64,000 bases of DNA from Acidimicrobiia bacterium. GTDB taxonomy: Bacteria > Actinomycetota > Acidimicrobiia > Spongiisociales > ZC4RG35. Numbering within the stretch: the first letter of the stretch is position 1; each line of letters opens with the position of its first letter. The stretch lies in the NCBI GenBank assembly GCA_036380875.1, contig DASVDX010000022.1:15753-79752 (forward strand), given 5' to 3'. Positions 18,969-60,645 of the stretch are shown one piece after another. The position numbers and the translations under genes were made by a program. Under the pieces are notes generated by a model, which had not been told where the DNA came from, ran no database searches, and saw only the letters and a list, made by a program, of their open reading frames with translations.

Positions 18969-18982
18969 TGTAACCGTTTTCC
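18969..18982. promoter_or_regulatory. LacI-type operator-like palindrome TGTAACCGTTTTCC upstream of the sugar ABC SBP gene
   Basis: Matches the LacI-family consensus TGnAAnCGnTTnCA with a central CG. Confidence 0.45.
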
Positions 18983-19079
18983 GTGCGCCTGTCCATCACA
19001 ACCGGGGGATTTTGTGACCCGGCGGCGGGATCGAGGGAACCGGTTGACCTCGCCGCCGGCCATGAGGTAGCCTCCTCAT

Positions 19080-19093
19080 GGAAAACGCTTGCC
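19080..19093. promoter_or_regulatory. LacI-type operator-like site GGAAAACGCTTGCC about 50 bp upstream of the LLM oxidoreductase gene
   Basis: AAnCGnTT core with GCC flank; same family as the other sites. Confidence 0.4.
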
Positions 19094-19141
19094 AGCCGGA
19101 TCGGTGTTGGCGGGCGGAGGAGAAGCGGCAAGGAAGGTCGT

Positions 19142-20152
19142 ATGCAAAACGTTGAGCGGTTCGGTGTGTTCCTGCCCTCGTTCATTTGGGCGGGCGACGG
19201 CCCGGAGCGAGCCCGGGGGATCAAGGACTTCGCTCGCCAGGTGGAGGACCTCGGATTCGATTCGATCTTCGTGACCGATCACTTGCTGGCTGCGAAGCAG
19301 TTCTACTCGGTGAACTTCCTCGAACCGATCTCGGCCTTGTCCGTCGCCGCCGGTGTCACGTCGCGGGTGAAGTTGGGCACCTCGGTCATGGTGCTCCCGA
19401 TCCGCGAGCCGGTGCTGCTCGCCAAGCAGCTGGCGACCTTGCACTTCCTCTCCGAGGGGAGGGCGATCCTCGGTGCCGGCATCGGCTGGTACCCGCCCGA
19501 ATACGCCGCCACCGGCGTGAAGAAGTCCGAGCGGGGGCCGCGCACCGACGAGATCCTCGACATCATCATCCCCGCCCTCGAAGGCAAGTCCGTCACCTAC
19601 AGCGGTCGCTTCTACCAGATCGAGGACGTGGAGATCGAGCCGCGCCTGCCCGAGCGTCCCGAGATCTGGATCGGTGGTGGCTCCCAGCTCGCCGATCCCG
19701 GCTCGCCCGACCTTCCCCGGTTCGTCGATGCGGTCAAGAAGCGCATCTTGCGCACGGAAGGGTGGATCCCCCGTCCCACGTGCCCGCCGGAGGACATCGC
19801 CCGGGACTGGGAGGAGCTGCAGGCATATCTCCGCGAGAACGGCCGTGACCCGTCGACCCTGACCGTGGCGCACGAGAACTTCATGCATCTCGTCCTGACC
19901 CAGGACCGGGAGAAGGCGCTGGCCGAGCAGCACGAGGCGTTCCTGCGGGTGATGAGCGAGGCCCGCGGGCGCGAGTACCTCGAGAAGGTGTACCTGTTCG
20001 GCACCCCCGACGACATCGTCGAGTCCCTGCAGGCGAGGATCGACGCCGGTGTGCAGCGTTTCATGCTCCACACCATGACGCCCGATCCGGGCCAGCTCGA
20101 GCATTGGATCACCGAGGTGATCGCCCACGTCCGGTTCCCGGACGAGGGATGA
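19142..20152 (+). CDS. LLM-class (luciferase-like) flavin/F420-dependent oxidoreductase
   Basis: GVFLP...GFDSIFVTDHL...LGTSVMVLPIREPVLLAKQLATL is the TIM-barrel LLM signature. RBS AAGGAAGG. Confidence 0.8.
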   Translation: MQNVERFGVFLPSFIWAGDGPERARGIKDFARQVEDLGFDSIFVTDHLLAAKQFYSVNFLEPISALSVAAGVTSRVKLGTSVMVLPIREPVLLAKQLATLHFLSEGRAILGAGIGWYPPEYAATGVKKSERGPRTDEILDIIIPALEGKSVTYSGRFYQIEDVEIEPRLPERPEIWIGGGSQLADPGSPDLPRFVDAVKKRILRTEGWIPRPTCPPEDIARDWEELQAYLRENGRDPSTLTVAHENFMHLVLTQDREKALAEQHEAFLRVMSEARGREYLEKVYLFGTPDDIVESLQARIDAGVQRFMLHTMTPDPGQLEHWITEVIAHVRFPDEG

Positions 20153-20158
20153 GGCCAG

Positions 20159-20199
20159 CACCTGCCGCGCCAACGTTGGCGGTCAGGTGGCGCGGCAGG
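20159..20199. terminator. Stem-loop after the LLM gene: 12-bp stem ACCTGCCGCGCC / GGCGCGGCAGGT with a 17-nt loop that itself contains the 14-bp palindrome CGCCAACGTTGGCG
   Basis: Nested inverted repeats in the 92-bp gap between the LLM and the NitT/TauT ATPase genes. Could act as a terminator/attenuator or as a protein-binding site. Confidence 0.45.
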
Positions 20200-20244
20200 T
20201 AGCGTGCGATCGGTAAGCGGTTTCCCTCCCCGAGGAGGCGGCTG

Positions 20245-21036
20245 GTGAGTCAACCGGAGGTCAGGTCGACCGTTGTGGATGAGGCGATCACGCTCCGGGG
20301 AGTCTCGAAGGTGTTCGGCACCGGCGACCGCGCCGTGACCGCTCTCCAGGCTCTGGACCTCGACATCGCCGCCGGCAGCTTCGTCTCTTTGCTCGGGCCG
20401 TCGGGCTGTGGGAAGACCACCCTGCTGCGCATGATCGGCGGCCTCGAAGAGCCCACCACGGGGACGATCGCCGTGGGCCGAGACTCGGTGGAGACCGCCC
20501 TGCGCAACCGCCTCTTCGGGTTCGTCTTCCAGGACGCCACCCTGCTGCCCTGGAGGACGGTCGAAGCCAACGCCTCGTTGCTCCTCGACGTCACGGGCCA
20601 GGGACCCGCCCGCCAGAAGGTGGCAGAGTTGCTGCGGCTCGTCGGACTCGCCGGCTTCGAACGCGCCTACCCGGACCAACTGTCGGGGGGGATGCGGCAG
20701 CGCGTCTCCCTCGCCCGGGCGCTGGCACTCGATCCCCGGGTGCTGCTCATGGACGAGCCCTTCGCCGCCCTCGACTCGATCACGCGGGACCGGATGGGTG
20801 AGGAGCTCCTGCGGATCTGGGATCGGTCGCGCACCGTGGTGTTCGTCACCCACTCGATCGCCGAAGCAGCCCTGCTGTCCGACCGGGTGCTCGTGTTGTC
20901 GGCCCGGCCCGGGCGGATCATCGCCGATGTGGCCATCGACCTCCCCCATCCCCGCACCGGGTCGGTACGGCAGACACCGGAGTTCTCGGAATACGTGCGG
21001 ATCCTGCGGTCCCACATCGAGGAGGCGTCTTCATGA
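20245..21036 (+). CDS. ABC transporter ATP-binding protein, NitT/TauT (SsuB/TauB-like) family
   Basis: Walker A GPSGCGKTT, LSGGMRQR signature and Walker B LLMDEPF. GTG start with RBS GAGGAGG. Confidence 0.85.
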   Translation: MSQPEVRSTVVDEAITLRGVSKVFGTGDRAVTALQALDLDIAAGSFVSLLGPSGCGKTTLLRMIGGLEEPTTGTIAVGRDSVETALRNRLFGFVFQDATLLPWRTVEANASLLLDVTGQGPARQKVAELLRLVGLAGFERAYPDQLSGGMRQRVSLARALALDPRVLLMDEPFAALDSITRDRMGEELLRIWDRSRTVVFVTHSIAEAALLSDRVLVLSARPGRIIADVAIDLPHPRTGSVRQTPEFSEYVRILRSHIEEASS

Positions 21037-21869
21037 CGGACGCCTCGGGCCTGCGGGTATCGACGGTCGACACCGAGGCGGCGGTCGTCCAGGCCGTCCG
21101 CCGCTCGGGTCTCTCGAATTGGCGGGCGTGGATCTATCCCAGCGCCTTCCTCGTTGCGCTCGTGCTGCTCTGGGAGTTGCTCGCCCGTCTGGAAGTGGTC
21201 GAGCCTTACATCCTCCCGGCGCCGACCGCGGTCCTCGACCGCATGGTGGCGGACTGGCCGGTCCTGTGGGACCACACGGTCACGACGCTGGCCGAGATCG
21301 GAGCGGGGTTCGGTCTCGGAGCCGTCGTCGGCATCGTGCTGGCGCTGCCCATCGCCTACTCGGCGGTCTTCCGCAACACCGTCTACCCGCTGATCGTCGC
21401 CTCCCAGGCGGTGCCGAAGATCGCCATCGCTCCCCTCCTCGTCCTCTGGCTCGGGTTCGGCATGTGGCCCAAGATCGTCATCACGGCGCTGATGGTCTTC
21501 TTCCCGGTGGTGGTGACCGCCGCCGAGGGCTTCGCCTCCGTCGACCGGTCCCTCCTCGAGTTGCTCCGCTCGGTCTCCGCGCCCCGCCACCAGATCTTTT
21601 CTCGCATCACCCTGCCCCACTCCCTGCCCCGAATCATGGCCGGTCTCAAGATCGGCATCACGCTGGCGGTCGTCGGCGCCATCGTCGGCGAGTGGGTCGG
21701 CGCCGACTCCGGCCTCGGGTACCTCCTCGTCTACGCCAACACCTTCCTCGACTCGACGCTTCTGTTCGCCTCGCTCGTGTTGCTCGTGGTGATCGGTGTC
21801 GTCCTGTTCATGCTCATCGGCGGTCTCGAGCGTCTGCTCATGCCCTGGCAGTACCGGTCCGGCAGGTGA
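21033..21869 (+). CDS. ABC transporter permease, NitT/TauT (SsuC/TauC-like) family
   Basis: Six hydrophobic segments and the permease EAA-like loop. ATGA overlap upstream. Confidence 0.8.
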   Translation: MTDASGLRVSTVDTEAAVVQAVRRSGLSNWRAWIYPSAFLVALVLLWELLARLEVVEPYILPAPTAVLDRMVADWPVLWDHTVTTLAEIGAGFGLGAVVGIVLALPIAYSAVFRNTVYPLIVASQAVPKIAIAPLLVLWLGFGMWPKIVITALMVFFPVVVTAAEGFASVDRSLLELLRSVSAPRHQIFSRITLPHSLPRIMAGLKIGITLAVVGAIVGEWVGADSGLGYLLVYANTFLDSTLLFASLVLLVVIGVVLFMLIGGLERLLMPWQYRSGR

Positions 21870-21911
21870 TCTCCGATGCCCCAACCTCCTTTCCTCGCTC
21901 CGGCCAACCCC

Positions 21912-21925
21912 AGTAAACGCTTGCC
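21912..21925. promoter_or_regulatory. LacI-type operator-like site AGTAAACGCTTGCC between the NitT/TauT permease and SBP genes
   Basis: AAnCGnTTGCC pattern. Confidence 0.4.
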
Positions 21926-21958
21926 GCCATGGTGGGCACGACCAACAGGGAGAGACAC

Positions 21959-23029
21959 ATGAGAAGCAAGAGAGCAGCACTCGCCATCGTTCTCGCGCTG
22001 GTGATCGCCGCCTGCGGTGGAGACGGGGGCGAGGCGACCACTACGGCCGCCGACGCCACGACCCCGCCGGCGACCGAGGCCACGACGCCCCCGGCCACCG
22101 AGGAGACGACTGCCACCAGCGCACCCGGGGAGACACCGACGGAGATGGCCTCGGTCAGGTTCCGTCTGAACTGGGTGATCGCCGGCAACCACGCCCCGTA
22201 CTTCCTGGCGAAGAAGGAAGGCTTTTGGGAGGCGTGTGGGCTCGACGTGACCCTCAACGCCGGCCAGGGCTCCGGCGACACCGCCCAACTCGTGGGAACC
22301 GGCGCCGAGGAGTTCGGGCTCACCGACGCGGTGTCGATCTCAGCGGGTCGCTCCCAGGGGCTTCCCATCAAGTCGATCGGCGTCATCTACCAGGACAACC
22401 CGTCGTCTCTCGTCTCCTACGTCGACACCGGGATCGAGGAGCTGGCCGACGTCGAGGGCAAGACCTACGGCGCGGTCCCGGGTGGCTCCCCTTATCTGCT
22501 CCTCCACGCCTTGTGGGAGGAGAACGGCATCGACGTCGACAGCATCCGCGAGGTGAGCGTGCCGGCACCGGGCATCGCCCAGCTCAAGACCCGCCAGGTC
22601 GACTTCATCACCTTCTTCGGCAACGAGGTGGTGAACATCGAAGCGGACACCAGCCTGCTCAACGTCCTCTTCTTCCGTGACTTCGGCCTGGAGAGCTACG
22701 GGTTGGCGCTGGCCGCCTCCGACGACTACATCGCCGAGAACCCCAACGCCGTGCAGTGCTTCGTCGACGGCGTCCGCCAGGGCTTCGAAGCCGCGGCGGC
22801 CGATCCCGAGGCGGCGCTGCAGGCCCTGTACGAAGCCGCTCCGGAGACGGAACAGGCTCCGGAGGTCCATCAGGCCATGCTCGAAGGTGCCTTCGAGTTC
22901 GCCGGTGACGACCTGCTCAGCCAGAACCTCGAGAAGTGGACCGCCACCCACGACTTCCTCTTCGAGGCAGGCGTGATCGAAGAGGCCGTGGACCCGGCGG
23001 AGCTGTTCACAGACGAGTTCGGTCAGTGA
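21959..23029 (+). CDS. ABC transporter substrate-binding lipoprotein, NMT1/SsuA/TauA-like
   Basis: Lipobox LVIAACGG, a T/A/P-rich linker, then the RLNWVIAGNHAPYFLA NMT1-like fold. A LacI-type palindrome lies 35 bp upstream. Confidence 0.8.
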   Translation: MRSKRAALAIVLALVIAACGGDGGEATTTAADATTPPATEATTPPATEETTATSAPGETPTEMASVRFRLNWVIAGNHAPYFLAKKEGFWEACGLDVTLNAGQGSGDTAQLVGTGAEEFGLTDAVSISAGRSQGLPIKSIGVIYQDNPSSLVSYVDTGIEELADVEGKTYGAVPGGSPYLLLHALWEENGIDVDSIREVSVPAPGIAQLKTRQVDFITFFGNEVVNIEADTSLLNVLFFRDFGLESYGLALAASDDYIAENPNAVQCFVDGVRQGFEAAAADPEAALQALYEAAPETEQAPEVHQAMLEGAFEFAGDDLLSQNLEKWTATHDFLFEAGVIEEAVDPAELFTDEFGQ

Positions 23030-23802
23030 CGGAGCCGACCGCCGTGTTCGACAACGCATTGGAAGGAAAGACCGTCCTGGTGACCGGCGGCAGCCGGGGC
23101 ATCGGTGCGGCCATCGCCACGGCCTGCGCCGATGCCGGCGCCGACGTGGCGGTCGGATACGTGGAGAATCGGGCCGGAGCCGAACGGACGGTCGAGGCCG
23201 TGGAGGAACGGGGTCGCAAGGCGGAGGCCTTCAAGGCCGACGTCAGCGACCCCGGCCAAGTGGCCGACATGGTCCGGGCCGTGACCGAGCGCTTCGGTCG
23301 CATCGACGCCCTCGTCAACAACGCCGGGATCATGCCCGAGTCCCCGGTCCTCGAGATGTCGGTCGAGGAGTGGAAGCGGGTCCTCGACGTCGACCTCACG
23401 GGTGCCTTCCTGTGCACTCGTGAGGTCGTCCCCGCGATGGTCGAGAGGGGTGAGGGATCGATCGTGATGATCGCTTCCCGTCTCGGCCAGATCGGCTTTG
23501 CCGGGGTAGCCCACTACGCCGCCGCCAAGGCGGGCGTCATTGGACTCACCAAGTCGCTCGCCAAGGAGCTCGGCCCCAAGGGAATCCGGGTCAACGCCGT
23601 GGCGCCCGGCGTGACCGTCACCGACATGGCGGCCGAAGTGATGCAAGGTGAAGTGGGCCAGAGGCGGCTCGCCGAACTCCCCGCCGGTCGCTTCGCCCGG
23701 CCCGAGGAAGTGGCAGCGAGCGTCGTGTTCCTGCTCTCTCCGGCCGCATCCATGTACTACGGGCAGACGCTGGCCCCCAACGGCGGGGGGTACATGGCAT
23801 GA
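23026..23802 (+). CDS. SDR-family oxidoreductase (FabG-like)
   Basis: TGGSRGIGAAIA, NNAG and YAAAKAG motifs. GTG start overlapping the SBP stop. Confidence 0.85.
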   Translation: MTEPTAVFDNALEGKTVLVTGGSRGIGAAIATACADAGADVAVGYVENRAGAERTVEAVEERGRKAEAFKADVSDPGQVADMVRAVTERFGRIDALVNNAGIMPESPVLEMSVEEWKRVLDVDLTGAFLCTREVVPAMVERGEGSIVMIASRLGQIGFAGVAHYAAAKAGVIGLTKSLAKELGPKGIRVNAVAPGVTVTDMAAEVMQGEVGQRRLAELPAGRFARPEEVAASVVFLLSPAASMYYGQTLAPNGGGYMA

Positions 23803-24575
23803 GCTCCGAACTGGTCGAGATCGAGGGCGGCCCCACCTCCATCCTGCGGCTCAACAACCCGCCGCTGAACCTCATCACGGTCGAGGTCACCCGCGCCCTC
23901 GATGCCGCCCTCGCCAGGCTCGAGGAGGATCCCGACGTCCGCGCCGTCGTGGTGACTGGCGCCGGCGATCGCGCATTCTGCGTCGGTTCCGACGTGAAGG
24001 AGTTCGAGTCGCTCAAGGGCCGCGTGGGCGAGGGCAAGCTCCTCCTCGAGAAGGCCGTCTACCGCCGGCTCGCCCGCCTCCCTGTGCCGACGATCGCCGC
24101 CATCGGCGGGGACGCATTGGGCGGCGGCCTGGAGCTCGCCCTGTGCTGCGACATCCTCGTCGCCGACGAGAACGCCCGCCTGGGCCTGCCCGAGGTGCGG
24201 CTCGGTGTGATGCCCGGGTCGGGCGGCACCCAACGCCTCCCGCGTCTCGTTGGGCTGGCCCGGGCCAAGGAGATGATCCTGACGGGCGAGATCTACGACG
24301 CCCACCAGGCCGAGAAGATGGGGCTCATCAACCGTGTCGCCGCCGCCGGCACCGCCCTCGAGGAGGCCCTGTCCATCGCCAGCACCATCGCCCAGCGCGG
24401 CCCGGTGGCGGTGCGGGAAGCCAAAAAGGTCATAGACCTGGCTCTCGACGTGCCTTTGGACCAGGGATTGGCGGCGGAACTGGACGCATCCGAGCGGGTG
24501 TTCCGGACCGAAGACATGCTCGAAGGAGCCCGCGCCTTCTTCGAAAAACGGCCCCCGGAGTTCAAGAACCGATGA
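23799..24575 (+). CDS. Enoyl-CoA hydratase/isomerase (crotonase) family protein
   Basis: Crotonase fold motifs [19 protein letters not shown] and [13 protein letters not shown]. Confidence 0.85.
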
Positions 24576-25441
24576 CAGCCGAAACGAGCACTCCGGCGAA
24601 GAGAGTGGCGCTGATCGGAAAGCCACTGCGCCGCCTCCACTCGCGGGTTATGCACAACGCCGCCTTTCGCCACTACGGGATCGAGGCCGATTACGAACTG
24701 GCCGAGATCGAGCCCGAGGAAGTCGGGGCCTTCGTCGCTTCCACACGGGCACCGGAGTGGTTCGGCTTCCAGATCACGGCTCCCTACAAGCAGGTGGTCG
24801 TCGAGCACCTCGACGAAGTGGAAGGGCCCGCCCGCGCCATCGGCGCAGTCAACTCGGTGGTTCGCGAGGCCGACGGTTCCCTGGTCGGGTTCAACACCGA
24901 CGCTCCCGGGTTCATCTCTGCCGTGAAAGGCGCGGGAGTGGACATCGCCGGCGTCCGCGCGGTGGTCGCCGGGGCGGGCGGGGCGGCACGAGCCGTGGTG
25001 TGGGGCCTCCTCGACGAGGGCGCCGCCGAGGTGACTGTCCTCAACCGGACACTGGAGCGCGCCGAGGCCCTGGCCGAGTCGATGGCGTCGGTGGGGACGG
25101 TCACGGCGCTCAGCGCGGAAGACCCCCGGGCGGCGGAGGCTCTATCCGGCTGCGGGATGGCGGTGAATGCGACCACCGTGGGGATGACCACTCCGGGGAC
25201 GGCCTTCGACGTCGAACTGCTGCCTGTCGACGCCGCCGTCTTCGACCTCGTCTACGTGCCTCCGATGACCCCGCTCGTGGAGGCGGCCAGCCGACGCGGT
25301 CTCGTGGTCCGCAACGGCCTCGACATGCTCGTCGCCCAAGCCGAGATCGCCTTCGGGCGCTGGACCGGCATCAGCGACGCCGGGCCTGTGATGCGCCGGG
25401 CGCTGGACGAGTGGGAAGGGCTGGAGAGCGGACAAGCCTGA
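24572..25441 (+). CDS. Shikimate/quinate 5-dehydrogenase family protein (AroE-like)
   Basis: NAAF...GFQITAPYK...VNSVV...GFNTDAPGF...VAGAGGAARAV...LNRT motifs. Start chosen at the ATG overlapping the crotonase stop; the 597-aa track ORF N-terminus was rejected. Confidence 0.8.
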   Translation: MTAETSTPAKRVALIGKPLRRLHSRVMHNAAFRHYGIEADYELAEIEPEEVGAFVASTRAPEWFGFQITAPYKQVVVEHLDEVEGPARAIGAVNSVVREADGSLVGFNTDAPGFISAVKGAGVDIAGVRAVVAGAGGAARAVVWGLLDEGAAEVTVLNRTLERAEALAESMASVGTVTALSAEDPRAAEALSGCGMAVNATTVGMTTPGTAFDVELLPVDAAVFDLVYVPPMTPLVEAASRRGLVVRNGLDMLVAQAEIAFGRWTGISDAGPVMRRALDEWEGLESGQA

Positions 25442-25442
25442 T

Positions 25443-26645: not shown

Positions 26646-26718
26646 TGGGCGCTTGCTCGGCTCGGCGGATCTCCTTATCCTGGGTCGTGGATAACGGTTT
26701 CCATCGGAAGGGGTAACC

Positions 26719-28960: not shown

Positions 28961-30016
28961 GTGACTTCCACAGCCCGCGACGCCAAGAACGACGGAATCA
29001 AGATCGCCTCGCTCCGGGACGTCGCCCGCACCGCAGGAGTCTCCGTGTCCACGGCCTCCCGGGTTCTGTCCGGGTCGTCCCACCCGGTGAGCGAACCGAC
29101 CCGACGACGTGTCCTCGAAGCGGCCGAGCGGCTCGGCTTCGAACCCAACCGGCTCGCCCGGGCCCTCGCCACCGCCCGGTCACGCACGATCGGTGTCGTC
29201 GTCCACGACGTCTCCGACCCGTACTACGCCGAGATCGTGCGCGGCTTGGAGGACGCCGCCGGGAGCCGGGACCATGCGCTCTTCGTCTCCAGCTCCGACC
29301 GCGACGTCGACAAGGAACTGGCGGTGATGAGGGCATTCGTCGCCAACCAGGTCGATGCGATCGTGCTGGTCGCTTCGGCCATCGACGACCCCCGCTACCT
29401 GGCGGAGGCTACGGCCATCCTCGACCGGTTCCGGGCGCTCGGCGGGGTGGTCGTGACGTTGTCGGAGCATGGGTACACCGCACCCCGGGTCGGGTACGGG
29501 AATCGAGAGGGCACGCAGCTGCTCGTCACCCACCTGCTCGATCTGGGCCACACCCGCATCGGCTACATCACCGGGCCGCCCTATTTGATGGTCACGAAGG
29601 CGCGCCGCAGCGGATACGAGACGGCCATGACCGAGCGGGGCCTGCGAGTCGATCCGGAACTGGTCATCGCCGGGGACTTCACGATCGAAGGCGGTGCGAG
29701 AGCGGCCGAGAAGCTGATGGCGGCGAATCCGACCGCCATCGTGGCCGCCAACGACATGATGGCGATCGGGGCGATCAGGTACCTGCTCGACCAAGGGAGC
29801 CGGGTCCCGGACGAGGTGTCGGTGGCAGGGTTCGACGACATCGAGTTCGCCGCTTACGCCGCGGTACCCCTCACCACCGTCCACGTGCCTCTGGGCGAGC
29901 TCGGACAGGTCGGGGGCCGGCTCGTGCTGGACCTCCTCGAAGGGAACCCGCCGGAGCAGTGGCCGCGGATCGACTTCCAATTGGTGATCCGCGAGTCGAC
30001 CGCGCCGCCCCGGTGA
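28961..30016 (+). CDS. LacI-family transcriptional regulator
   Basis: HTH IASLRDVARTAGVSVSTASRVLSG followed by a periplasmic-binding-protein-like effector domain. GTG start chosen about 10 aa before the HTH, so the start is uncertain. Confidence 0.75.
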   Translation: MTSTARDAKNDGIKIASLRDVARTAGVSVSTASRVLSGSSHPVSEPTRRRVLEAAERLGFEPNRLARALATARSRTIGVVVHDVSDPYYAEIVRGLEDAAGSRDHALFVSSSDRDVDKELAVMRAFVANQVDAIVLVASAIDDPRYLAEATAILDRFRALGGVVVTLSEHGYTAPRVGYGNREGTQLLVTHLLDLGHTRIGYITGPPYLMVTKARRSGYETAMTERGLRVDPELVIAGDFTIEGGARAAEKLMAANPTAIVAANDMMAIGAIRYLLDQGSRVPDEVSVAGFDDIEFAAYAAVPLTTVHVPLGELGQVGGRLVLDLLEGNPPEQWPRIDFQLVIRESTAPPR

Positions 30017-31927: not shown

Positions 31928-32676
31928 GACGTCTCCTCCGACTCCTTGGCGGCTTCGGCCAGTGACCCGAGGTACAGGTCGCGGATCCGTGGGTCGTCGA
32001 GGATCTCGTCGGCGGAGCCTTCGAATCGGCACGTGCCCAGGTCGAGGACGAAGGCCCAGTCGGCAACGTCGAGGCCTTTCTTCACGTTCTGCTCGATCAG
32101 AAGCACGGTGATGCCCATCTCGCTCGTGAGCGACCGGATGATGTCGAAGATCTGGCTGGAGACCTGGGGGGCGAGGCCGAGGCTGGGCTCGTCGATCATC
32201 ATCAGCCGCGGCTGGATCATGAGAGCGCGTGCCATGACGAGCATCTGTTGTTCGCCGCCCGACATCGTCTGGGCGAGCTGGGACGCGCGCTCGGCGAGCC
32301 GGGGGAACCGGTCCATGAGCTCGTCCACCCGCTGTTCGACCAGCTTCCTGTCGCGGAGCAGGAATCCGCCCATCACCAGGTTCTCGCGGACCGTCATCTG
32401 CGGGAAGATCGTGCGGTCTTGGGGGACGAAACACACCCCGGCGGCGAGCACCTGGTCGGGTCGTCGTCCGGCGATGCTCTGGCCGTCGAAGACGATGCCG
32501 CCGTCGCGGGGCGTGAGCAGCCCGGCGATTGTCTTCAGGAGGGTCGACTTGCCGGCGCCGTTGGGGCCGATGATGCAGTACGTGCGGCCCTCTTCGACGT
32601 CTATCGAGATGTCGGTGAGGATGTCGGGGCCGGCCCCGTACCCGGCGCGGACGTTGCGGACTTCGAGCAGCGCCAT
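31924..32676 (-). CDS. ABC transporter ATP-binding protein (LivF-like)
   Basis: GPNGAGKSTLL, MSGGEQQML and MIDEPSLGLAP motifs. 1-nt TGATG overlap with livG-like. Confidence 0.85.
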   Translation of the reverse strand: MALLEVRNVRAGYGAGPDILTDISIDVEEGRTYCIIGPNGAGKSTLLKTIAGLLTPRDGGIVFDGQSIAGRRPDQVLAAGVCFVPQDRTIFPQMTVRENLVMGGFLLRDRKLVEQRVDELMDRFPRLAERASQLAQTMSGGEQQMLVMARALMIQPRLMMIDEPSLGLAPQVSSQIFDIIRSLTSEMGITVLLIEQNVKKGLDVADWAFVLDLGTCRFEGSADEILDDPRIRDLYLGSLAEAAKESEETS

Positions 32677-34899: not shown

Positions 34900-35014
34900 C
34901 GAGGTTCTCCTCACGTCGGTGTCCTCCTCTTCGGTCGGCACAGAAGCGGCCCCGGTCGGCCCGCCCCTGCGTCAACCGGTTTCCATGCTACGCCCTAGAT
35001 CTGCAACCGGCCAT

Positions 35015-35028
35015 CACAAACGATTGCG
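35015..35028. promoter_or_regulatory. LacI-type operator-like site CACAAACGATTGCG upstream of Liv-type operon 1 (minus strand)
   Basis: Half-site CACAAA/ATTGCG also occurs at 36231 and 51745. An adjacent AT-rich palindrome GCAATATTTGC lies at about 35038-35048. Confidence 0.45.
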
Positions 35029-35079: not shown

Positions 35080-36108
35080 TCAAACGGCCGACCGGGGCGG
35101 GGCGGTGGACCCGCGGACCACGAGGGTGGGCGTGAGCAGCTTCGTGCCCTTGTGGTACTCGGTGCCGGCGATCATGGCCAGGAGGGTCGACGCCGCCTCG
35201 GCTCCCATCTGGCGGTGCGGCACTCGCACCGCCGTCATCGGCGGCTGCATGAGATCGAGGAGCGGGATGTCGTTGTAGCCGGTCACCGAGATGTCAGGGC
35301 CGACTTCCTTGCCCAACGACCGGATCGTCCGATAGCACCCCAGGGCCAGGAGGTCGTTGGCAGCGACGATGGCCGTCATGTCCGGATGGCGATCCAAGAG
35401 CGCTGCCGAGGCGTTGGCGCCCGGTTCGACTTGGTACCACTCCGCCTCTTCGATCACATCGGGCCCGGCGTCGAGGCCGTGGCGCTCCATGGCTGCCACG
35501 AAGGCGTCGCGGCGGCCGATGCCGGTAGACACCCACGAGGGCCCGGCGACGTGGCCGATGCGCCGGTGACCCAGGGACACCAGGTGGTCGACGGCGAGAG
35601 CGATGCCGGCATGGTCGTCGCCTACGATCGCCGGGACGTCGCCTTTGTCGACGGTGCGGTTGACGAGGACGATGGGAATCCCCTGCGAGCCGGCCATCGC
35701 CATCTGACCGTCGTCGCGGGTGGCGGTGGCGAGGATCAGGCCGTCCACGTGCCGTTCGATCATGTCCTCGATCACCGCCTCGGCGTGTTCCACGCCGCGA
35801 TCGGCGTTGCCGATCAGGAGCGAATAGCCATCCTCGACGAGGACGGATTCGGCGCCCGCCACGATCGGGCCGAACAGCGGGTTCTCGACATCGGGGATGA
35901 CCATCCCGATGGACATCGTCTGGTTGGTGCGCAGACCCCGGGCGAGCGGGTGCGGCCGATACCCCAGTCGCTCAGCAGCTTCGACGACCCGCTTCAGCGT
36001 CTCCGGGTTGACCACCGAAGACGTGGCAGGGTTGAGCGCCCGTGAGGCGGTGGAAACATGGACCCCGGCCTCGCGGGCAACATCTTTGAGTGTGGGTCGG
36101 CCGTTCAC
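35080..36108 (-). CDS. LacI-family transcriptional regulator
   Basis: HTH PTLKDVAREAGVHVSTASRALN followed by a sugar-binding domain. GTG start; the upstream part of the track ORF was rejected. Confidence 0.75.
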   Translation of the reverse strand: MNGRPTLKDVAREAGVHVSTASRALNPATSSVVNPETLKRVVEAAERLGYRPHPLARGLRTNQTMSIGMVIPDVENPLFGPIVAGAESVLVEDGYSLLIGNADRGVEHAEAVIEDMIERHVDGLILATATRDDGQMAMAGSQGIPIVLVNRTVDKGDVPAIVGDDHAGIALAVDHLVSLGHRRIGHVAGPSWVSTGIGRRDAFVAAMERHGLDAGPDVIEEAEWYQVEPGANASAALLDRHPDMTAIVAANDLLALGCYRTIRSLGKEVGPDISVTGYNDIPLLDLMQPPMTAVRVPHRQMGAEAASTLLAMIAGTEYHKGTKLLTPTLVVRGSTAPPRSAV

Positions 36109-36230: not shown

Positions 36231-36244
36231 TACAAACGATTGCG
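36231..36244. promoter_or_regulatory. LacI-type operator-like site TACAAACGATTGCG in the divergent region between the LacI gene (35080-36108) and the HIBADH/SSADH/RidA operon
   Basis: Near-identical to the 35015 site. Confidence 0.45.
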
Positions 36245-39145: not shown

Positions 39146-39159
39146 TACAAGCGTTTGCC
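39146..39159. promoter_or_regulatory. LacI-type operator-like site TACAAGCGTTTGCC upstream of the LacI gene at 39238
   Basis: AAnCGnTTGCC pattern. Confidence 0.4.
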
Positions 39160-39237
39160 GAAACTCCGACACGGGCAAACGCCGTGTGGAACAATGCCGC
39201 CACCACCGCCGGAGGAGGAGGTTCTGCCGACGTGAGC

Positions 39238-40239
39238 ATGCCGACGCTCGACGATGTCGCCCGGGAGGTGGGTGTCCACCCCTCCACCGTGTCGCGCGCT
39301 CTCAACCCGAATCGGGCCCAACTCGTCAACCCGGAGACGCGCAAGGCAGTCGAAGAGGCGGCCCGGCGGCTCGGCTATCGCCCGCACATGGTCGCCCGCG
39401 GGCTGCAGAGCGGCCGGACGGCCACCATCGGCGTCGTGGCCGCTGACCTCGGCAATCCCTTCGTCACCCCGATCATCCACGGCATCACCGCCTCTCTCGA
39501 GATCGGCGAGATCATGCCGGTCATCGCCGAGACCCAGGACGAGCACGAGCGTTTCTCCCGGATCCTCGATCACATGCTCTCCCGGCGCGTCGACGCCGTG
39601 ATCTCTCTCGCAACGCGCGCCGGCGACCGTCGGATACTCGAAGACGCCGCCCGCATCGCCCCGGTCGTGATCGCCGCCCGTCCCCTGCCGGAGAGCGATC
39701 TGCCCCAGGTGGTCCATGACGACGGCGGCGGCGCCACCATGGCCGCCGAGCACCTCCACCAGCTCGGGCACCGTCGGGTAGCCCAGCTCCGCGGCCCGCT
39801 CGACGTGGCCAACTTCTCCCATCGCGCCGAGGCCTTCACCGCCGCCTGTGCCCGACTCGGCATGACCGAGATCGAGGTCCCCGAGATGGCAGCTGTTCCC
39901 ACGATCGCCGAGGGGCGCCGCCTCACCGAGGCGCTTCTGGGAAGGGAGAAGGAGCCTCCGACCGCCATCTTCGCCCACAACGACCTCATGGCGATGGGCA
40001 CCCTGGCGGCACTCCGGGAAGCCGGGCTGCGCGTCCCCGACGACGTCTCCCTGATCGGGTACAACGACCTGCCGATGATGGATCTCGTCACCCCGGCCTT
40101 GACCACCATCCGCTATCCCAGCCGGGAGATCGGCCTCGCCGCGGGGGAATTGGTCATCGAGATACTGGCTGGGGAGGAGGTGAAGAACGTCTGCCTCCAG
40201 CCCGCCCTGGTGGTGCGGGACTCGACGCGCCCGATCTGA
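39238..40239 (+). CDS. LacI-family transcriptional regulator
   Basis: HTH MPTLDDVAREVGVHPSTVSRALN followed by an effector domain. Confidence 0.8.
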   Translation: MPTLDDVAREVGVHPSTVSRALNPNRAQLVNPETRKAVEEAARRLGYRPHMVARGLQSGRTATIGVVAADLGNPFVTPIIHGITASLEIGEIMPVIAETQDEHERFSRILDHMLSRRVDAVISLATRAGDRRILEDAARIAPVVIAARPLPESDLPQVVHDDGGGATMAAEHLHQLGHRRVAQLRGPLDVANFSHRAEAFTAACARLGMTEIEVPEMAAVPTIAEGRRLTEALLGREKEPPTAIFAHNDLMAMGTLAALREAGLRVPDDVSLIGYNDLPMMDLVTPALTTIRYPSREIGLAAGELVIEILAGEEVKNVCLQPALVVRDSTRPI

Positions 40240-40274: not shown

Positions 40275-40288
40275 TGCAAACGTTTGAA
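40275..40288. promoter_or_regulatory. LacI-type operator-like site TGCAAACGTTTGAA upstream of the SDR gene at 40323
   Basis: Near-perfect palindrome TGCAAACGTTTG. Confidence 0.5.
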
Positions 40289-43292: not shown

Positions 43293-43306
43293 TGCAAGCG
43301 CCTGCA
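43293..43306. promoter_or_regulatory. LacI-type operator-like site TGCAAGCGCCTGCA upstream of the Liv-type SBP gene at 43426
   Basis: TGCAAnCGnnTGCA pattern. Confidence 0.45.
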
Positions 43307-51639: not shown

Positions 51640-51653
51640 TGCAAGCGCTTGCT
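51640..51653. promoter_or_regulatory. LacI-type operator-like perfect palindrome TGCAAGCGCTTGCT in the amidohydrolase / SBP divergent region
   Basis: GCAAGCGCTTGC is a perfect 12-bp palindrome. First of three sites in this 200-bp region. Confidence 0.5.
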
Positions 51654-51700: not shown

Positions 51701-51714
51701 TTCAAGCGATTGCT
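51701..51714. promoter_or_regulatory. LacI-type operator-like site TTCAAGCGATTGCT (second site in the same divergent region)
   Basis: AAnCGnTTGC core. Confidence 0.4.
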
Positions 51715-51744: not shown

Positions 51745-51758
51745 CACAAACGGTTGCA
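51745..51758. promoter_or_regulatory. LacI-type operator-like site CACAAACGGTTGCA (third site, about 40 bp upstream of the SBP start)
   Basis: CACAAA half-site as at 35015 and 36231. Confidence 0.45.
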
Positions 51759-56680: not shown

Positions 56681-56694
56681 GAAAAGCGTTTGAA
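56681..56694. promoter_or_regulatory. LacI-type operator-like site GAAAAGCGTTTGAA upstream of doxX-marR
   Basis: Shares the TTTGAAGG right half with the 40275 and 60632 sites. Confidence 0.35.
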
Positions 56695-57605: not shown

Positions 57606-57619
57606 CTGCAACCGATTGC
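57606..57619. promoter_or_regulatory. LacI-type operator-like site TGCAACCGATTGCA upstream of the PPOX/amidohydrolase operon
   Basis: Perfect TGCAA/TTGCA half-sites around a central CG. Confidence 0.5.
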
Positions 57620-57641
57620 AGGCTTTGGTAGGCTCGCAGTC

Positions 57642-58025
57642 ATGCTGGATTCCAAGGCCATCGATCTCCTCCGCGGGGCGAACTACGCCGCCCTCACCAC
57701 CCTCATGCCCGACGGCCACCCGCAGACCCAGATCGTGTGGGTCGACACCGACGGTGAGCACGTCCTGGTGAACACCGAGCGGCATCGGCAGAAGGCACGT
57801 AACGTGCAGCGCGACCCGCGGGTGACGGTGTTGGTGTGGGACCGCAACGACATGTGGAAACGCGCCGAGATCCGCGGCGAGGTGGTGGAGATCGTCGGGG
57901 GCCCGGAAGGCCGAGAGATGATCGATCGACTTTCGAACAAGTACCTGGGTCACGACTATCGCAACCCGATCCAGACAGAGCGGGTCACCCTGAAGATCGC
58001 TCCCCGCCGCGTCCTGGTGTCGTGA
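57642..58025 (+). CDS. PPOX-class (pyridoxamine 5-phosphate oxidase-like) probable F420-dependent enzyme
   Basis: 127 aa; LLRGANYAALTTLMPDGHPQTQIVWV and VLVNTERHRQKARNVQRDPRVTV are the split-barrel signature. Confidence 0.8.
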   Translation: MLDSKAIDLLRGANYAALTTLMPDGHPQTQIVWVDTDGEHVLVNTERHRQKARNVQRDPRVTVLVWDRNDMWKRAEIRGEVVEIVGGPEGREMIDRLSNKYLGHDYRNPIQTERVTLKIAPRRVLVS

Positions 58026-59608
58026 CTCCGGATCTCCTCGTTGCCGGCGGTCCGATCTGGACCGGTTCTCGAACGGTCGAGGCGGTCGGGATCTCCGGCG
58101 GCCGGGTCGTCGCTGCCGGGGCGAGGGACGACGTCCAGTCGGCGCTCCGCAGGGGCTGGCAGGAGATCGACCTCCAAGGTCGGCGCGCCATCCCGGGGCT
58201 CATCGACTCCCACGTCCACGTGCTGCGGGCCGGGCTGACGTGGAACGACATCGTCCGCTGGGATGACATCACATCACTGGCGGCAGGTTTGGAGCGGATC
58301 CGAGAGGCGGCCGAGTCTCGCCCCGGATCCACCTGGATTCGCGTGCTGGGCGGATGGCACCCGGGCCGCTTCGCCGAAGGGAGAGGGCCAACCCGGGGTG
58401 AGCTCGACTCCGTCGGGGGCGAGCATCCCGTCTACGTCCAGCTCCTGTACGAGGAGGGAGTCCTCAACTCGAAAGGGCTCGAGCTGGTCCTCGCCGATGG
58501 GGAGGTGCCCGGTGTGGAGCGCGACGACGAGGGTCGGCCGACCGGCAAGATCACCGGTCAGCCGGCGTTCGGCCGGGTGCTCTCGCTCTTCGAGCGCCCC
58601 AGCTTCTCCGAGCAGAAGGCATCCACGCAGGCGCTGGTGGCCGACTTCCTGTCACGAGGTGTCACCGGTGCCATCGACCCTGGCGGCTTCGGGATCACCC
58701 CGGAGTCGTACAACGCCATGTTCGATCTGTGGCGCAACGACCAACTCGACATGCGCATCCGGCTCTACCTGGTGCCGCAGGGCCGGGGCAACGAACTCGC
58801 CGACGTTCGCAACTGGGTCCGCTACGTCCAGCCCGGCTTCGGGGACGACATGCTCCGCTACGTCGGGATGGGAGAGATCGTCAGCTTCGCCTGCCACGAC
58901 ATGGAGGGTGTGCGACCCTTCGAGGTGACCGAGGAGGCGAAACGGGAGCTCCTCGAGGCGGTCGACGTGCTGGCCGAGCACGGCTGGCCGGTCCACCTCC
59001 ACGCCATCTTCGACACCACGATCTCGGCGGTGCTGGACGTCCTCGAAGAGGTCGACCGCAAGCACGGTCTTCCGGGACGGCGGTTCTCCCTGGCTCACGC
59101 CGAGGCGATCAGCCGCCCGAACCTGGAACGGGTCCGGCGCCTGGGGATGGGACTCGCCATCCAGAACCGCCTCATCTACCGCTGCGCCGATTCCGCCGCC
59201 CTGTGGGGAGAAGAAGCGGCGGCGAACGCTCCGCCGCTCGGGGATGTCCTCGAGATGGGCATCCCGCTCGGGGCCGGCACCGACGCCACCGTCGTCACCC
59301 CGCACGACCCGTGGCTGGCGATCTGGTGGCTCGTCACCGGGGAGTCGTTCGACGGCGCCCCGCCCCGGGCCGCCCGTCACCGCCTGTCGACAGAGCAGGC
59401 TCTCGTGGCCTACACGCGGGGGAGTGCCTGGTTCAGCTTCGAAGAAGGCCAGCGGGGCCACTTGGAGCCGGGGGCTTTGGCTGATGTCGCCGTGTTGTCG
59501 GCCGACCCCTTCGAAGTCGATCCGGCCGATCTGCCGAGCATCTACTCGGAGTTGACGCTGGTGGGAGGAAAGCCAGTCCACACCGGCCCGGCCTACGCCG
59601 GCCTATGA
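58022..59608 (+). CDS. Amidohydrolase family 3 (YtcJ/N-substituted formamide deformylase-like) metal-dependent hydrolase
   Basis: GLIDSHVHV and HLHAIFDT motifs plus a C-terminal amidohydrolase_3 region. GTGA overlap with the PPOX gene. Confidence 0.8.
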   Translation: MTPDLLVAGGPIWTGSRTVEAVGISGGRVVAAGARDDVQSALRRGWQEIDLQGRRAIPGLIDSHVHVLRAGLTWNDIVRWDDITSLAAGLERIREAAESRPGSTWIRVLGGWHPGRFAEGRGPTRGELDSVGGEHPVYVQLLYEEGVLNSKGLELVLADGEVPGVERDDEGRPTGKITGQPAFGRVLSLFERPSFSEQKASTQALVADFLSRGVTGAIDPGGFGITPESYNAMFDLWRNDQLDMRIRLYLVPQGRGNELADVRNWVRYVQPGFGDDMLRYVGMGEIVSFACHDMEGVRPFEVTEEAKRELLEAVDVLAEHGWPVHLHAIFDTTISAVLDVLEEVDRKHGLPGRRFSLAHAEAISRPNLERVRRLGMGLAIQNRLIYRCADSAALWGEEAAANAPPLGDVLEMGIPLGAGTDATVVTPHDPWLAIWWLVTGESFDGAPPRAARHRLSTEQALVAYTRGSAWFSFEEGQRGHLEPGALADVAVLSADPFEVDPADLPSIYSELTLVGGKPVHTGPAYAGL

Positions 59609-60492
59609 CCTCCCTCCCGCAACAGAGCGGCCAGGCCGCTCATGTCGTCGGGCCCCATCCCGGCGTCGACCGCTCGTCTCGTCAATTCGGCGGTGGCGGC
59701 GAGTTGCTCCACAGGGGCGCCGACCCGCTCGGCCAGACCGAGGATGAGCTCGAGATCCTTCGCCACCAGATCGAGGCTGAACGCCACCGGCACCTCGCCC
59801 GGCCGTTCGAACGCCTGCCGCTTGTACAGGAGAAACGGCGACGCCGCGGCGCTGTTGGCGAACACCTCGTAGGCCTTCTCGCGTTCGACGCCTGCCTTCT
59901 CCGCCAGGACGAGCGCCTCGGAGATGGCGAGGTTGGTGGCGTGGACGAGGGAGTTCACTGCGAGCTTTATCGTCGCTCCCGTGCCGTTGGCGCCGAGGTG
60001 GAACACTGTCTTCGAGTAGGTGTCGATGACGGGTTTCGCCTTGTCCAGAGCTGTGGCGTCGCCGCCCACCATCGACGTGAGGGCTCCCTGTTCGAGGAGC
60101 GACACGCTTCCCGACACCGGGGCGTCCAAGAGCCACGCTCCCGCCTCCCGGTAGCGGGGCGCGATGGAGGTGATCGTCTCGGGGTCCACGGTGCTCGTCT
60201 CCACCACCACCGCTCCGGACCCGATGCCGTCGAGGATCCCTCCCGCTCCGGCGTGGGCTGCCTCCAGAGCGGCGTCGTCGGCCAGGCTGCACACCACGAC
60301 CTCGGCCGAGGCGGCGGCGTCAGCGGCGCTGCCCGCCACCTCGGCGCCGATCTCCTCTGCCACGGCGGCAGCTCTCTCGGGCGTTCGGTTCCACACCACC
60401 GTCTGGAAGCCGGCGCCGGCGATACGGCGGGCCATCGCCGACCCCATGCGCCCCATCCCGATGACGCTCACGGTGCCGATTTCGTCGGTCAT
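59593..60492 (-). CDS. NAD(P)-dependent oxidoreductase, 6PGDH NAD-binding / HIBADH family
   Basis: VSVIGMGRMGSAMARRI Rossmann motif and the HIBADH C-terminal domain. Start at MTDEIG. Confidence 0.8.
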   Translation of the reverse strand: MTDEIGTVSVIGMGRMGSAMARRIAGAGFQTVVWNRTPERAAAVAEEIGAEVAGSAADAAASAEVVVCSLADDAALEAAHAGAGGILDGIGSGAVVVETSTVDPETITSIAPRYREAGAWLLDAPVSGSVSLLEQGALTSMVGGDATALDKAKPVIDTYSKTVFHLGANGTGATIKLAVNSLVHATNLAISEALVLAEKAGVEREKAYEVFANSAAASPFLLYKRQAFERPGEVPVAFSLDLVAKDLELILGLAERVGAPVEQLAATAELTRRAVDAGMGPDDMSGLAALLREGGHRPA

Positions 60493-60552
60493 CTCGCCTC
60501 TCCTTTGGTCGTTGTCTGCCCGGGTTCGCCGTGCCACGTTCTCCCCAGGAGC

Positions 60553-60566
60553 CGCAAGCGATTGCA
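60553..60566. promoter_or_regulatory. LacI-type operator-like site CGCAAGCGATTGCA in the 6PGDH-like / M24 peptidase divergent region
   Basis: GCAAnCGnTTGCA pattern. Confidence 0.45.
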
Positions 60567-60631
60567 GCCCGGTCTATCCTCTGGGAGCGGCACTTGCCGG
60601 AGGGAACCACATTTGTCCTGATCCGGGGAAC

Positions 60632-60645
60632 GGCAAACGTTTGAA
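60632..60645. promoter_or_regulatory. LacI-type operator-like site GGCAAACGTTTGAA about 40 bp upstream of the M24 peptidase gene
   Basis: CAAACGTTTG perfect core. Confidence 0.45.

Follow-up and report, generated by a model that had tools for sequence, protein, structure and literature searches.

Candidate operators for three paralogous LacI-family repressors in a transport and catabolic gene cluster of an uncultured Acidimicrobiia bacterium

Results

Genes of the locus and related loci

A stretch of 64 kb of DNA from an uncultured Acidimicrobiia bacterium (Actinomycetota), referred to here as the window, was analysed for short CG-centred palindromes that recur between its genes and are putative operators of three LacI-family regulators encoded among them. 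The window has a G+C content of 67.2%. Genes were mapped from the G+C content at third codon positions (GC3) and annotated by Pfam. Four start codons were corrected on the evidence of ribosome-binding sites (RBS) and signal peptides: those of the substrate-binding protein (SBP) genes SBP-A (34899) and SBP-B (43426), of the NMT1 SBP gene (21956) and of an SDR gene (40323).

From left to right, a sugar ABC operon lies on the minus strand (14003-18895, with its SBP gene at 17681-18895), followed by genes for a luciferase-like protein, a NitT-type ABC system with the NMT1 SBP, an SDR, an ECH, a shikimate-DH-like protein and an alanine racemase (19142-26645). A DUF993 gene and then a TauE gene separate the alanine racemase gene from the first LacI-family gene, LacI#1 (28961..30016, plus strand, 351 aa). 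Behind it come, both on the minus strand, the Liv-type ABC operon A (30033-34899) and LacI#2 (35080..36108, 342 aa). An operon of HIBADH-like, Aldedh and RidA genes, divergent from LacI#2, lies between it and LacI#3 (39232..40239, plus strand, 335 aa). Farther on are the SDR gene (40323-41021), two ApbA genes and the Liv-type ABC operon B, then Zn-ADH, bicupin and amidohydrolase genes on the minus strand, the Liv-type ABC operon C with SBP-C at 51795-53147, a DoxX-MarR pair and PNPOx-like/Amidohydro_3 genes. A second HIBADH-like gene (HIBADH2, 59593-60537, minus strand) and, divergent from it, an operon for a creatinase-like M24 enzyme and E1 alpha/beta subunits close the row. An earlier, sequence-only reading of this DNA had named as targets a sugar ABC system, three Liv-type ABC systems, a NitT/TauT-type SBP, dehydrogenases, an M24 peptidase and PNPOx/amidohydrolase genes, and Pfam bore this list out.

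All three LacI proteins carry PF00356 together with PF00532/PF13377, the hinge A-R-x-L motif and Arg-20; LacI#1 matched the Pfam LacI HTH and Peripla_BP_1/3/4 families, LacI#2 and LacI#3 the Pfam LacI family. LacI#3 is 40% identical to LacI#2 overall, with a very similar DNA-binding domain (DBD). Within their N-terminal 70 residues these two have a His before the recognition helix (GVH[VP]ST) and a loop, ALNPxxxxxVNPET, that is one residue longer than in LacI#1 or classical family members. An identical copy of the LacI#2 gene was found on 18 metagenome contigs, the longest being ERZ4232226 NODE_517 (70 kb), and relatives 70-90% identical to LacI#2 were metagenome-assembled genomes of Acidimicrobiia, one at 70% being labelled Acidobacteriota.

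The comparison set consisted of 15 related Acidimicrobiia loci, each viewed over 10 kb on either side. Loci were retrieved via LacI#2 (L011-L014), LacI#1 (L018, L019), LacI#3 (L069-L071), the amidohydrolase (L062, L063, L065-L068) and the sugar SBP (L072, L073).

A palindromic core concentrated between genes

The window contains 21 copies of the core AANCGNTT, where 3.9 would be expected; none of 100 shuffles reached 21, and no other palindrome of the same shape is similarly enriched. With the corrected starts, 18 of the 21 copies lie in intergenic DNA, which amounts to 3,136 bp or 4.9% of the window (binomial p = 3e-21); the other three are in coding sequence at 38131, 43459 and 44863. Intergenic DNA has a GC content of 63.5% versus 67.2% for the window, and a first-order Markov simulation from the pooled intergenic DNA gave 0.57 expected cores for the 18 seen.

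All sites are CG-centred with AA/TT at ±3 and ±4, and conservation extends to bases outside the selected core, (T/G)GCAA...TTGC(A/C), the symmetrised profile being (T/G)GCAAnCGnTTGC(A/C). Similarity among the sites ends beyond about 16 bp. A direct-repeat search returned only paralogous coding segments and no repeat element over the sites, and an Rfam scan gave no RNA family at them. The 14-mer TGCAANCGNTTGCA with at most two mismatches has 10 matches versus 1.07 expected, all within 36-61 kb. At up to three mismatches it is not significant (17 matches versus 13.9 expected), so that core and location, and not the 14-mer, support the sites at 18969, 19080, 21912 and 35015. A position weight matrix (PWM) scan gave 22 matches, of which 20 are intergenic, 43459 being counted as coding after correction of the SBP-B start.

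The sites are not evenly spread. In the first 18.9 kb, 643 bp of intergenic DNA hold one atypical site, whereas the 2,455 bp between 18.9 and 61 kb hold 17. Of the 18 intergenic gaps of 20 bp or more in the 18.8-61 kb interval, 13 contain a site; the other five, among them the one upstream of LacI#1, were searched for weak sites without a credible result. Distances from the operators to the start codons downstream range from 22 to 130 bp.

Fifteen sites had been listed by the sequence-only reading. All proved to be CG-centred palindrome-like 14-mers within 1 bp of the position given (57606 is 57607), and none of them lies inside a coding sequence, as had been stated. Its claim that all have the core holds exactly for 14 of the 15, that at 43293 (TGCAAGCGCCTGCA) having one mismatch. 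Missing from its list were 19035, 20212, 34971, 26689 (one core mismatch) and 4312, which is outside the range it described. The identification as LacI-family-type operators stood up well, the sites being even, CG-centred, promoter-proximal palindromes beside three LacI-family genes that are genuine by Pfam, and both intergenic enrichment and conservation in related genomes, on which that reading had staked itself, are present.

Predicted operators

The sites can be described by three variants: type A, yGCAATCGwTTGTr; type B, TGCAArCGyTTGmA; and type C, GGwAAnCGnTTdCm. Across the loci, each orthologous position retains its own variant.

Type C sites precede the sugar SBP gene, the luciferase-like gene and DUF993, and one occupies the proximal position at Liv-A. 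The first, TGTAACCGTTTTCC (18969..18982), has an exact core and lies 80 bp upstream of the sugar-ABC SBP gene, with near-identical counterparts at the same -80 position in L072 (GGCAAACGGTTACA) and L073 (TGTAAACGTTTGCC). GGAAAACGCTTGCC (19080..19093), 56 bp upstream of the luciferase-like gene, is present as an identical 14-mer in L072 despite differing flanks. A probable type C site of lower confidence, GGATAACGGTTTCC (26689..26702), was picked up by the PWM scan 24 bp upstream of the DUF993 gene and has one core mismatch; it is identical in L018 and L072 with diverged flanks, but both are close relatives. Read towards the gene, GGAAACCGGTTGAC (34971..34984) lies 78 bp upstream of the Liv-type SBP-A gene and is conserved in L011, L018, L019 and L014.

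Type A sites are found at the LacI#2 promoter, at the distal Liv-A position and at HIBADH2, and before a Mo-enzyme gene in L012 and L013. CGCAATCGTTTGTG (35015..35028, minus strand) is 122 bp upstream of SBP-A, the type C site being 44 bp away; CGCAATCGATTGTG stands at the orthologous place in L011, L014, L018 and L019, and it is this variant that recurs upstream of the Mo-enzyme gene. CGCAATCGTTTGTA (36231..36244, minus strand) lies in the divergent region between LacI#2 and the HIBADH-like-Aldedh-RidA operon. The site 22 bp upstream of HIBADH2, TGCAATCGCTTGCG (60553..60566, towards the gene), is A-like with an AATCG centre, and its orthologous sites are TGCAATCGATTGTT in L065 and TGCAATCGATTGTA in L066. 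With an ACAA half-site and an AAGCG centre, TACAAGCGTTTGCC (39146..39159), 80 bp upstream of LacI#3, is ambiguous between types A and B; L011 and L018 have the identical sequence and L066 a variant of it.

Type B sites precede the SDR, amidohydrolase, SBP-C and M24 genes. TGCAAACGTTTGAA (40275..40288), 42 bp upstream of the SDR gene, is conserved there in L011, L014, L062, L063, L065, L066 and L067, and SDR-proximal type B sites are also present in L069 and L070. TGCAAGCGCCTGCA (43293..43306), 126 bp upstream of SBP-B, is a possible degenerate type B site of low to medium confidence, conserved only in the relatives of about 90% identity, L011 and L067. The 204-bp divergent region between the amidohydrolase and SBP-C genes holds three sites and the 146-bp 6PGDH-like/M24 divergent region two, both as first reported. 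In the former, AGCAAGCGCTTGCA (51640..51653, towards the gene) is 56 bp upstream of the amidohydrolase-bicupin-Zn-ADH operon and conserved in L062, L063, L065, L066, L067 and L069. The middle operator, TTCAAGCGATTGCT (51701..51714), is present in L063, L065 and L066 with variable sequence and is conserved by position only. The third, CACAAACGGTTGCA (51745..51758), lies 44 bp upstream of SBP-C, the SBP-C-proximal site being TTCAAGCGTTTGCA in L063, L065 and L066 and CACAAACGCTTGCA in L069. A possible operator, GAAAAGCGTTTGAA (56681..56694), stands 40 bp upstream of DoxX-MarR; these genes are absent from the related loci. TGCAACCGATTGCA (57607..57620), a perfect palindrome 28 bp upstream of PNPOx-like/Amidohydro_3, has a counterpart, TGCAAGCGATTGCA, upstream of PNPOx in L066. 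The last is the type B site GGCAAACGTTTGAA (60632..60645), 46 bp upstream of the M24-E1 alpha/beta operon, with counterparts TGCAAGCGTTTGAA in L065 and L066 and TACAAACGTTTGCG in L070.

Some core matches were not taken as operators. GGGAACCGGTTGAC (19035..19048) overlaps the -35 element TTGACC of the luciferase-like gene and is probably no operator; in the 90% relative L072 its core is destroyed and TTGACC is kept. GGTAAGCGGTTTCC (20212..20225), between the luciferase-like gene and the ABC ATPase gene, is unsupported, the intergenic region of L072 being unrelated and site-free. Equally unsupported is AGTAAACGCTTGCC (21912..21925), 38 bp upstream of the NMT1-type SBP gene, where the orthologous sequence in L072 (ACAGATGCTTGCC) has lost the core. 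The match at 43459 was rejected; given the RBS-supported start at 43426, it codes for G-N-R-L-L in the signal peptide. An AAsCGrTT core inside the aldehyde dehydrogenase gene (38131-38144) is kept in all orthologues (L011 7104, L014 6495, L062 4980, L063 8053 and L066 15511), and is most simply conserved coding sequence, not an operator.

Conservation of sites and of their borders

The same intergenic regions contain the same sites in the related loci, with diverged flanks. This applies at similar distances to L062, L063, L065-L071 and L072-L073. In a nine-genome alignment of the LacI#2/HIBADH divergent region, 12 of the 13 invariant columns are specified operator bases of CGCAAnCGnTTGTA. L065 and L066 have the genes from M24 to LacI#2 in one compact cluster of about 17 kb, with two sites between M24 and HIBADH2, three between SBP-C and the amidohydrolase gene, and one each before PNPOx, SDR and LacI#2. 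Overall, the footprint is conserved at 18969, 19080, 34971, 35015, 36231, 39146, 40275, 51640, 51701 (position), 51745, 57607, 60553 and 60632. It is weak for 26689 and 43293, for which the comparison is with close relatives only, and missing for 19035, 20212 and 21912.

In the window as in the related loci, the sites stop where the gene cluster ends, and the flanks outside it are essentially site-free in L012, L013, L062 and L070. A distant actinobacterial contig, L064, served as negative control: it lacks a LacI gene, and 21 kb of it hold no intergenic site. Its M24, amidohydrolase (PRK08204), bicupin and SDR genes form a single operon (8579-12967) adjoining an HTH_3-cupin regulator, and the regulator of these pathway genes appears to have been replaced.

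A-like sites (AATCG, TTGT) were also seen in L069 (12053-15139 and 19792) and L071 (9809-9878, 15193 and 15867), where they precede Amidohydro_2/cupin, DAO and 2-hydroxyacid-DH-creatininase operons beside the putatively type B-controlled genes. This hints at a type A regulon that is larger and variable between lineages.

Operator variants follow the adjacent LacI gene

Among 14 loci, the AATCG centre occurs in 21 of 21 sites in LacI#2 context versus three of 30 in LacI#3 context (p = 2e-11; 6e-6 for distinct sequences), and the ACAA half-site in 20 of 21 versus four of 30. The half-site CACAAA, which the sequence-only reading had found shared by several sites, is borne out as ACAAA, a mark of the LacI#2 variant. 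In the window, both halves contain CAA in none of seven sites below 35 kb and in 10 of 12 above (Fisher p = 7e-4). LacI#2 adjoins CGCAAwCGwTTGTA in 10 of 10 orthologous loci, and LacI#3 orthologues down to 61% identity still adjoin SDR, amidohydrolase, bicupin or M24 genes with type B sites. Loci with a single one of these regulators follow the same division: in L013, where LacI#2 is the only one within 10 kb, both sites are type A; L012, with only LacI#2 nearby, has two type A sites and one B-like site; L070 has LacI#3 only, and all four of its cluster sites are type B.

A metagenome scan with LacI#1 found three orthologues only, and the proposed link of this regulator to type C sites was for that reason taken from the neighbours of the sugar SBP. 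A LacI#1 orthologue in L073 (53% identity versus 32% to LacI#2) neighbours the sugar ABC operon there. Two copies of the 14-mer GGCAAACGTTTACA accompany them, one 80 bp upstream of the SBP and one at the 5' end of the LacI gene. Own-promoter sites are present for LacI#2 (36231), for LacI#3 (39146) and for the L073 orthologue of LacI#1.

L018, an 87% relative, has a fourth LacI gene (8888-9922) directly upstream of its LacI#1 orthologue, and ahead of this gene lies a 26-bp double palindrome, TGTAACCGGTTTCGAAACCGGTTACA (8852-8877).

In the recognition code of Camas et al. (2010; PMC2978694), NT-2 co-varies with AA-55, AA-15 and AA-5, NT-5 and NT-4 co-vary with AA-15 and AA-16, G at NT-6 goes with Arg-20, and the central CG with Ala-51 and Leu-54. 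Arg-20, Ala-51 and Leu-54 are present in all three paralogues, and the operators have G at NT-6 and the central CG. The variants differ chiefly at NT-2, which is T in type A, A/G in type B and A/C in type C. At AA-55/AA-15/AA-5 (GalR numbering) the paralogues read A/V/R in LacI#1, which has S at AA-16, R/V/K in LacI#2 and Q/P/D in LacI#3. The LacI#2 group conserves K at AA-5, V/I at AA-15 and R at AA-55, and the LacI#3 group P at AA-15 and Q at AA-55; AA-15 and AA-55 are conserved per orthologous group, AA-5 drifting to N/H in the most distant LacI#3 orthologues. The code agrees with the predicted pairing of variants and paralogues.

Position relative to promoter-like elements

Sigma-70 scans were unhelpful for this lineage, and -10-like TAnnnT elements were therefore read by eye. 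Such elements abut 36231, 34971, 57607, 60632 and 56681. The site at 36231 overlaps a conserved -10-like TAGTAT facing LacI#2, and TAGGCT or TAGAGT follows within 5-6 nt of the operators at 57607, 60632 and 56681, the last of which shares a TTTGAA-N5/6-TAGAGT layout with the M24 site. The promoter scan placed 51640 inside the spacer of a -35 TTGCCA/-10 TACGAT promoter-like site. Just downstream of a -35 TTGACC/-10 TAGCCT-like pair lies 19080, and 40275 is likewise behind such an element; 43293 is just behind a TTGACG-18 nt-GAACAT pair. At Liv-A, the type A site lies over the -35 region and the type C site starts right behind a -10-like TAGCAT. This is the layout expected of repression by promoter occlusion, the presumed mode of action.

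TAGGCT/TAGAGT elements recur beside several operators (40250, 56701, 60651). In the stretch 57621-57644, in front of the PNPOx-like gene, TAGGCT stands 7 nt before the ATG with no RBS, and the gene looks leaderless. A hairpin, ATTGCG-N10-CGCAAT (35023-35044, minus strand), lies just after the LacI#2 stop codon and has the left half of operator 35015 as its 3' arm; it could be a stem resembling a terminator, or an additional half-site. A fixed looping geometry was considered and rejected: the 44-bp spacing of the A and C sites at Liv-A is kept only among close relatives (69 bp in L014), and spacings in the three-site region vary from 33 to 320 bp.

Other features of the window

GGTAATCGATTATC (4312-4325), a CG-centred palindrome with a perfect core, lies 52 bp before an operon (4371-11379) for a PEP-utilising enzyme, a GntR(FCD) regulator, a PPDK_N protein and a three-subunit Mo-hydroxylase. 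Its flanks are unlike the GCAA types, and it may be the operator of yet another regulator. Three successive genes at 497-4279 encode adenylate/guanylate cyclase catalytic domains, one with an N-terminal YHS domain. The five SBPs (17681-18895, 21956-23029, 33493-34899, 43426-44811 and 51795-53147) are predicted lipoproteins with an L-x-A-C lipobox, and all have a long Thr/Ala/Glu/Pro-rich low-complexity linker behind the lipid-anchor cysteine.

Discussion

The distribution of the variants suggests that three paralogous LacI repressors, each with its own version of a CG-centred 14-bp palindrome, jointly control this transport and catabolic supercluster, a reading to which we give a probability of about 0.65. 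LacI#2 would act through type A sites on its own promoter and the HIBADH-like/aldehyde dehydrogenase/RidA operon (36231), on Liv-A (35015) and on HIBADH2 (60553). Type B sites would place the SDR gene (40275), the amidohydrolase-bicupin-ADH operon (51640), Liv-C (51701, 51745), PNPOx/Amidohydro_3 (57607) and M24-E1 (60632) under LacI#3, to which 43293 and 56681 probably also belong. LacI#1 would use type C sites at the sugar ABC operon (18969), the luciferase-like/NitT-ABC genes (19080), DUF993 (26689) and, together with LacI#2, Liv-A (34971). That type C tracks LacI#1 is probable and the least certain of the assignments. Each repressor dimer would bind by its HTH, a hinge-helix leucine being inserted in the central CG, the bound protein would occlude RNA polymerase, and a pathway metabolite would bring about release. 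Binding, the sign of regulation, the pairing of regulators and variants and the effectors are all what we infer from sequence, and cross-talk between LacI#2 and LacI#3 is possible.

Several points weigh against this assignment. All the evidence is in silico. The division between types A and B is not clean, the sites at 39146, 51745, 60553 and 57607 having mixed features and three SDR-proximal sites having AATCG, and cross-binding by LacI#2 and LacI#3, 40% identical and so alike in their DNA-binding domains, is plausible. The Fisher p-values are overstated because orthologous sites are phylogenetically non-independent. The type C consensus is marginally enriched (seven matches versus 2.7 expected, with six of 100 shuffles reaching seven), and the 330 bp upstream of LacI#1 in the window contain no site at its own promoter. 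The fourth LacI paralogue of L018, absent from the window, carries AACCGGTT palindromes, so that the regulator of type C could be something else. The promoter elements are only consensus-like, sigma-70 scans having given one match in 45 kb. Finally, about 64 kb of the genome was viewed, and sites may also lie elsewhere.

Two other arrangements keep the sites under LacI control. LacI#2 and LacI#3 could share all GCAA-type sites between 35 and 61 kb in the manner of GalR/GalS, as two sensors for one set of targets, with type C separate. The similar DBDs with the same one-residue loop insertion, the adjacency of the two genes in most loci, the mixed sites and the intermixing of A-like and B-like sites in divergent regions would fit such overlapping control; the strong statistical split of the AATCG and ACAA features by context, hinge and recognition-helix differences conserved per group and the single variant in each of L070 and L013 speak against it, and we regard it as unlikely. 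Somewhat less likely still is a single LacI regulator, one of the three or one from elsewhere, that binds all sites with affinities tuned by the variants. Such a regulon would explain why all sites share the AANCGNTT core, mostly with GCAA/TTGC flanks, why several mix A and B features and why L065 and L066 have the regulated genes together in one conserved supercluster. It is at odds with the way variant bases are kept at orthologous positions and change together with the adjacent LacI orthologue, with the matching variant only in the LacI#2-only locus L013 and the LacI#3-only locus L070, and with the differences between the paralogues at published NT-2-determining residues; it would also leave the three LacI genes, two of which have own-promoter sites, otherwise without operators.

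The sequence-only reading had gone further and proposed one large regulon of a global catabolite-type regulator, CcpA/cre-like or PurR-like, in which case the window would be a dense patch of genome-wide sites. The consensus skeleton is indeed that of cre, TGWAANCGNTNWCA (PMC5263246), type B equals the PurR-box core GCAAACGTTTGC (PMC3159470), and such a regulon, with 13 or more intergenic regions and about 40 genes, would be large enough to count as "global" by the criterion of Ravcheev et al. (2014). The closer comparison did not support the proposal: the three variants segregate by position and adjacent LacI orthologue, the paralogues differ at AA-5, AA-15 and AA-55, and the sites travel with local LacI genes. 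For the CcpA model TIGR01481 the proteins score 152, 171 and 201 bits against a cut-off of 442, and for the PurR model NF007979 162-182 bits against 501. Since no protein reaches these thresholds and the sites stop at the cluster borders over the 64 kb viewed and the 10 kb to either side in the relatives, with one atypical site in the first 18.9 kb and essentially site-free flanks in the relatives, local LacI regulons are indicated and a global regulator is very improbable. The chance that the sites are not regulatory at all, as an artefact of AT-rich composition, -35-like TTGAC/TTGCA boxes or a REP/MITE-like repeat, is close to negligible. Intergenic DNA is slightly AT-richer, a -35 box explains 19035 and three matches are not conserved; yet the Markov model accounts for 0.57 of 18 cores and no other palindrome of this shape is enriched, similarity stops at about 16 bp with no repeat family over the sites, and the sites are exactly conserved within diverged flanks and absent where LacI was replaced (L064).

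A wider proposal can be made tentatively, at slightly less than even odds: LacI#2 and LacI#3 would define an Acidimicrobiia-wide, non-carbohydrate regulon pair for a conserved, biochemically uncharacterised catabolic pathway of a nitrogen-containing compound, with some promoters integrating two LacI sensors. The pathway would comprise the PRK08204-type amidohydrolase, the bicupin, the SDR, the creatinase-like M24 enzyme with its E1 subunits, HIBADH-like and succinate-semialdehyde-type dehydrogenases, RidA and two or three dedicated Liv-type ABC importers. Neither for the regulators nor for the amidohydrolase, bicupin and M24 enzymes did NCBIfam or PDB yield an equivalog or a closely related solved homologue, and no substrate can be named for that reason. 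The best PDB matches of the regulated enzymes are no better than 1e-29, and the amidohydrolase belongs to the "hypothetical" subfamily PRK08204, with a 73% identical homologue even in Streptomyces.

If this holds, the operators would be a ready-made guide to the full gene set of the pathway. A full-text literature search found no described regulon for this Acidimicrobiia lineage, and for this uncultured group the present predictions connect regulators with operators and targets in a form open to testing. About 15 operons would be linked into two or three functional units, which helps in assigning roles to widespread uncharacterised enzymes, and the three paralogues are a natural test case for the published LacI recognition code at NT-2. 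Understanding of LacI-family regulation as such is unchanged, this being ordinary regulation in an unusually dense packing; the interest is modest and lies in the non-sugar targets and the three-paralogue layout.

In the survey of Ravcheev et al. (2014; PMC4052901), 1173 of 1303 LacI-family motifs have a central CG, 75% of sites lie at -140 to -30 and fewer than 1% in coding sequence, and 72% of regulators are autoregulated; 96% of the pathway-assigned groups concern carbohydrates and 69% of regulators control one or two operons. The predicted regulons resemble these local LacI regulons in their even CG-centred palindromes, in sites that lie mostly at -140 to -30 and hardly ever in coding sequence, in having the regulator beside its targets, often autoregulated, and in a presumed repression relieved by a small-molecule effector. 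They depart from that norm in the non-carbohydrate targets of LacI#2 and LacI#3 (Liv-type amino-acid/amide-type ABC systems, amidohydrolases, bicupin, the M24 enzyme, aldehyde dehydrogenase and HIBADH-like dehydrogenases), in some four to seven operons per regulator, in three regulons interleaved within 42 kb and in a Liv-A promoter with two different variants.

Similarity to Firmicutes CcpA/cre is confined to the skeleton TGWAANCGNTNWCA (PMC5263246), to which type C, GGAAAnCGnTTACA, comes nearest; there is no CcpA equivalog among the proteins, the sites are in one gene cluster and the lineage is Actinomycetota. With E. coli PurR, the predicted system shares the fold and DNA-binding mode, and type B, TGCAAACGTTTGCA, contains the GCAAACGTTTGC core of the purMN and xanP operators (PMC3159470). 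Unlike PurR, the three proteins score far below the equivalog cut-off and their putative targets are catabolic and transport genes, not purine biosynthesis. PurR, moreover, requires a corepressor. As in RbsR/PurR and AglR/ThuR (Ravcheev et al., 2014), paralogues are found near homologous target operons with motifs that differ at few positions. The present locus is distinguished from these pairs and from GalR/GalS by three paralogues in one place. Cross-talk between paralogues is a feature of GalR/GalS. Compared with the known duplicated pairs, discrimination in this cluster would seem to lie mainly in NT-2 and one half-site (ACAA versus GCAA/TCAA).

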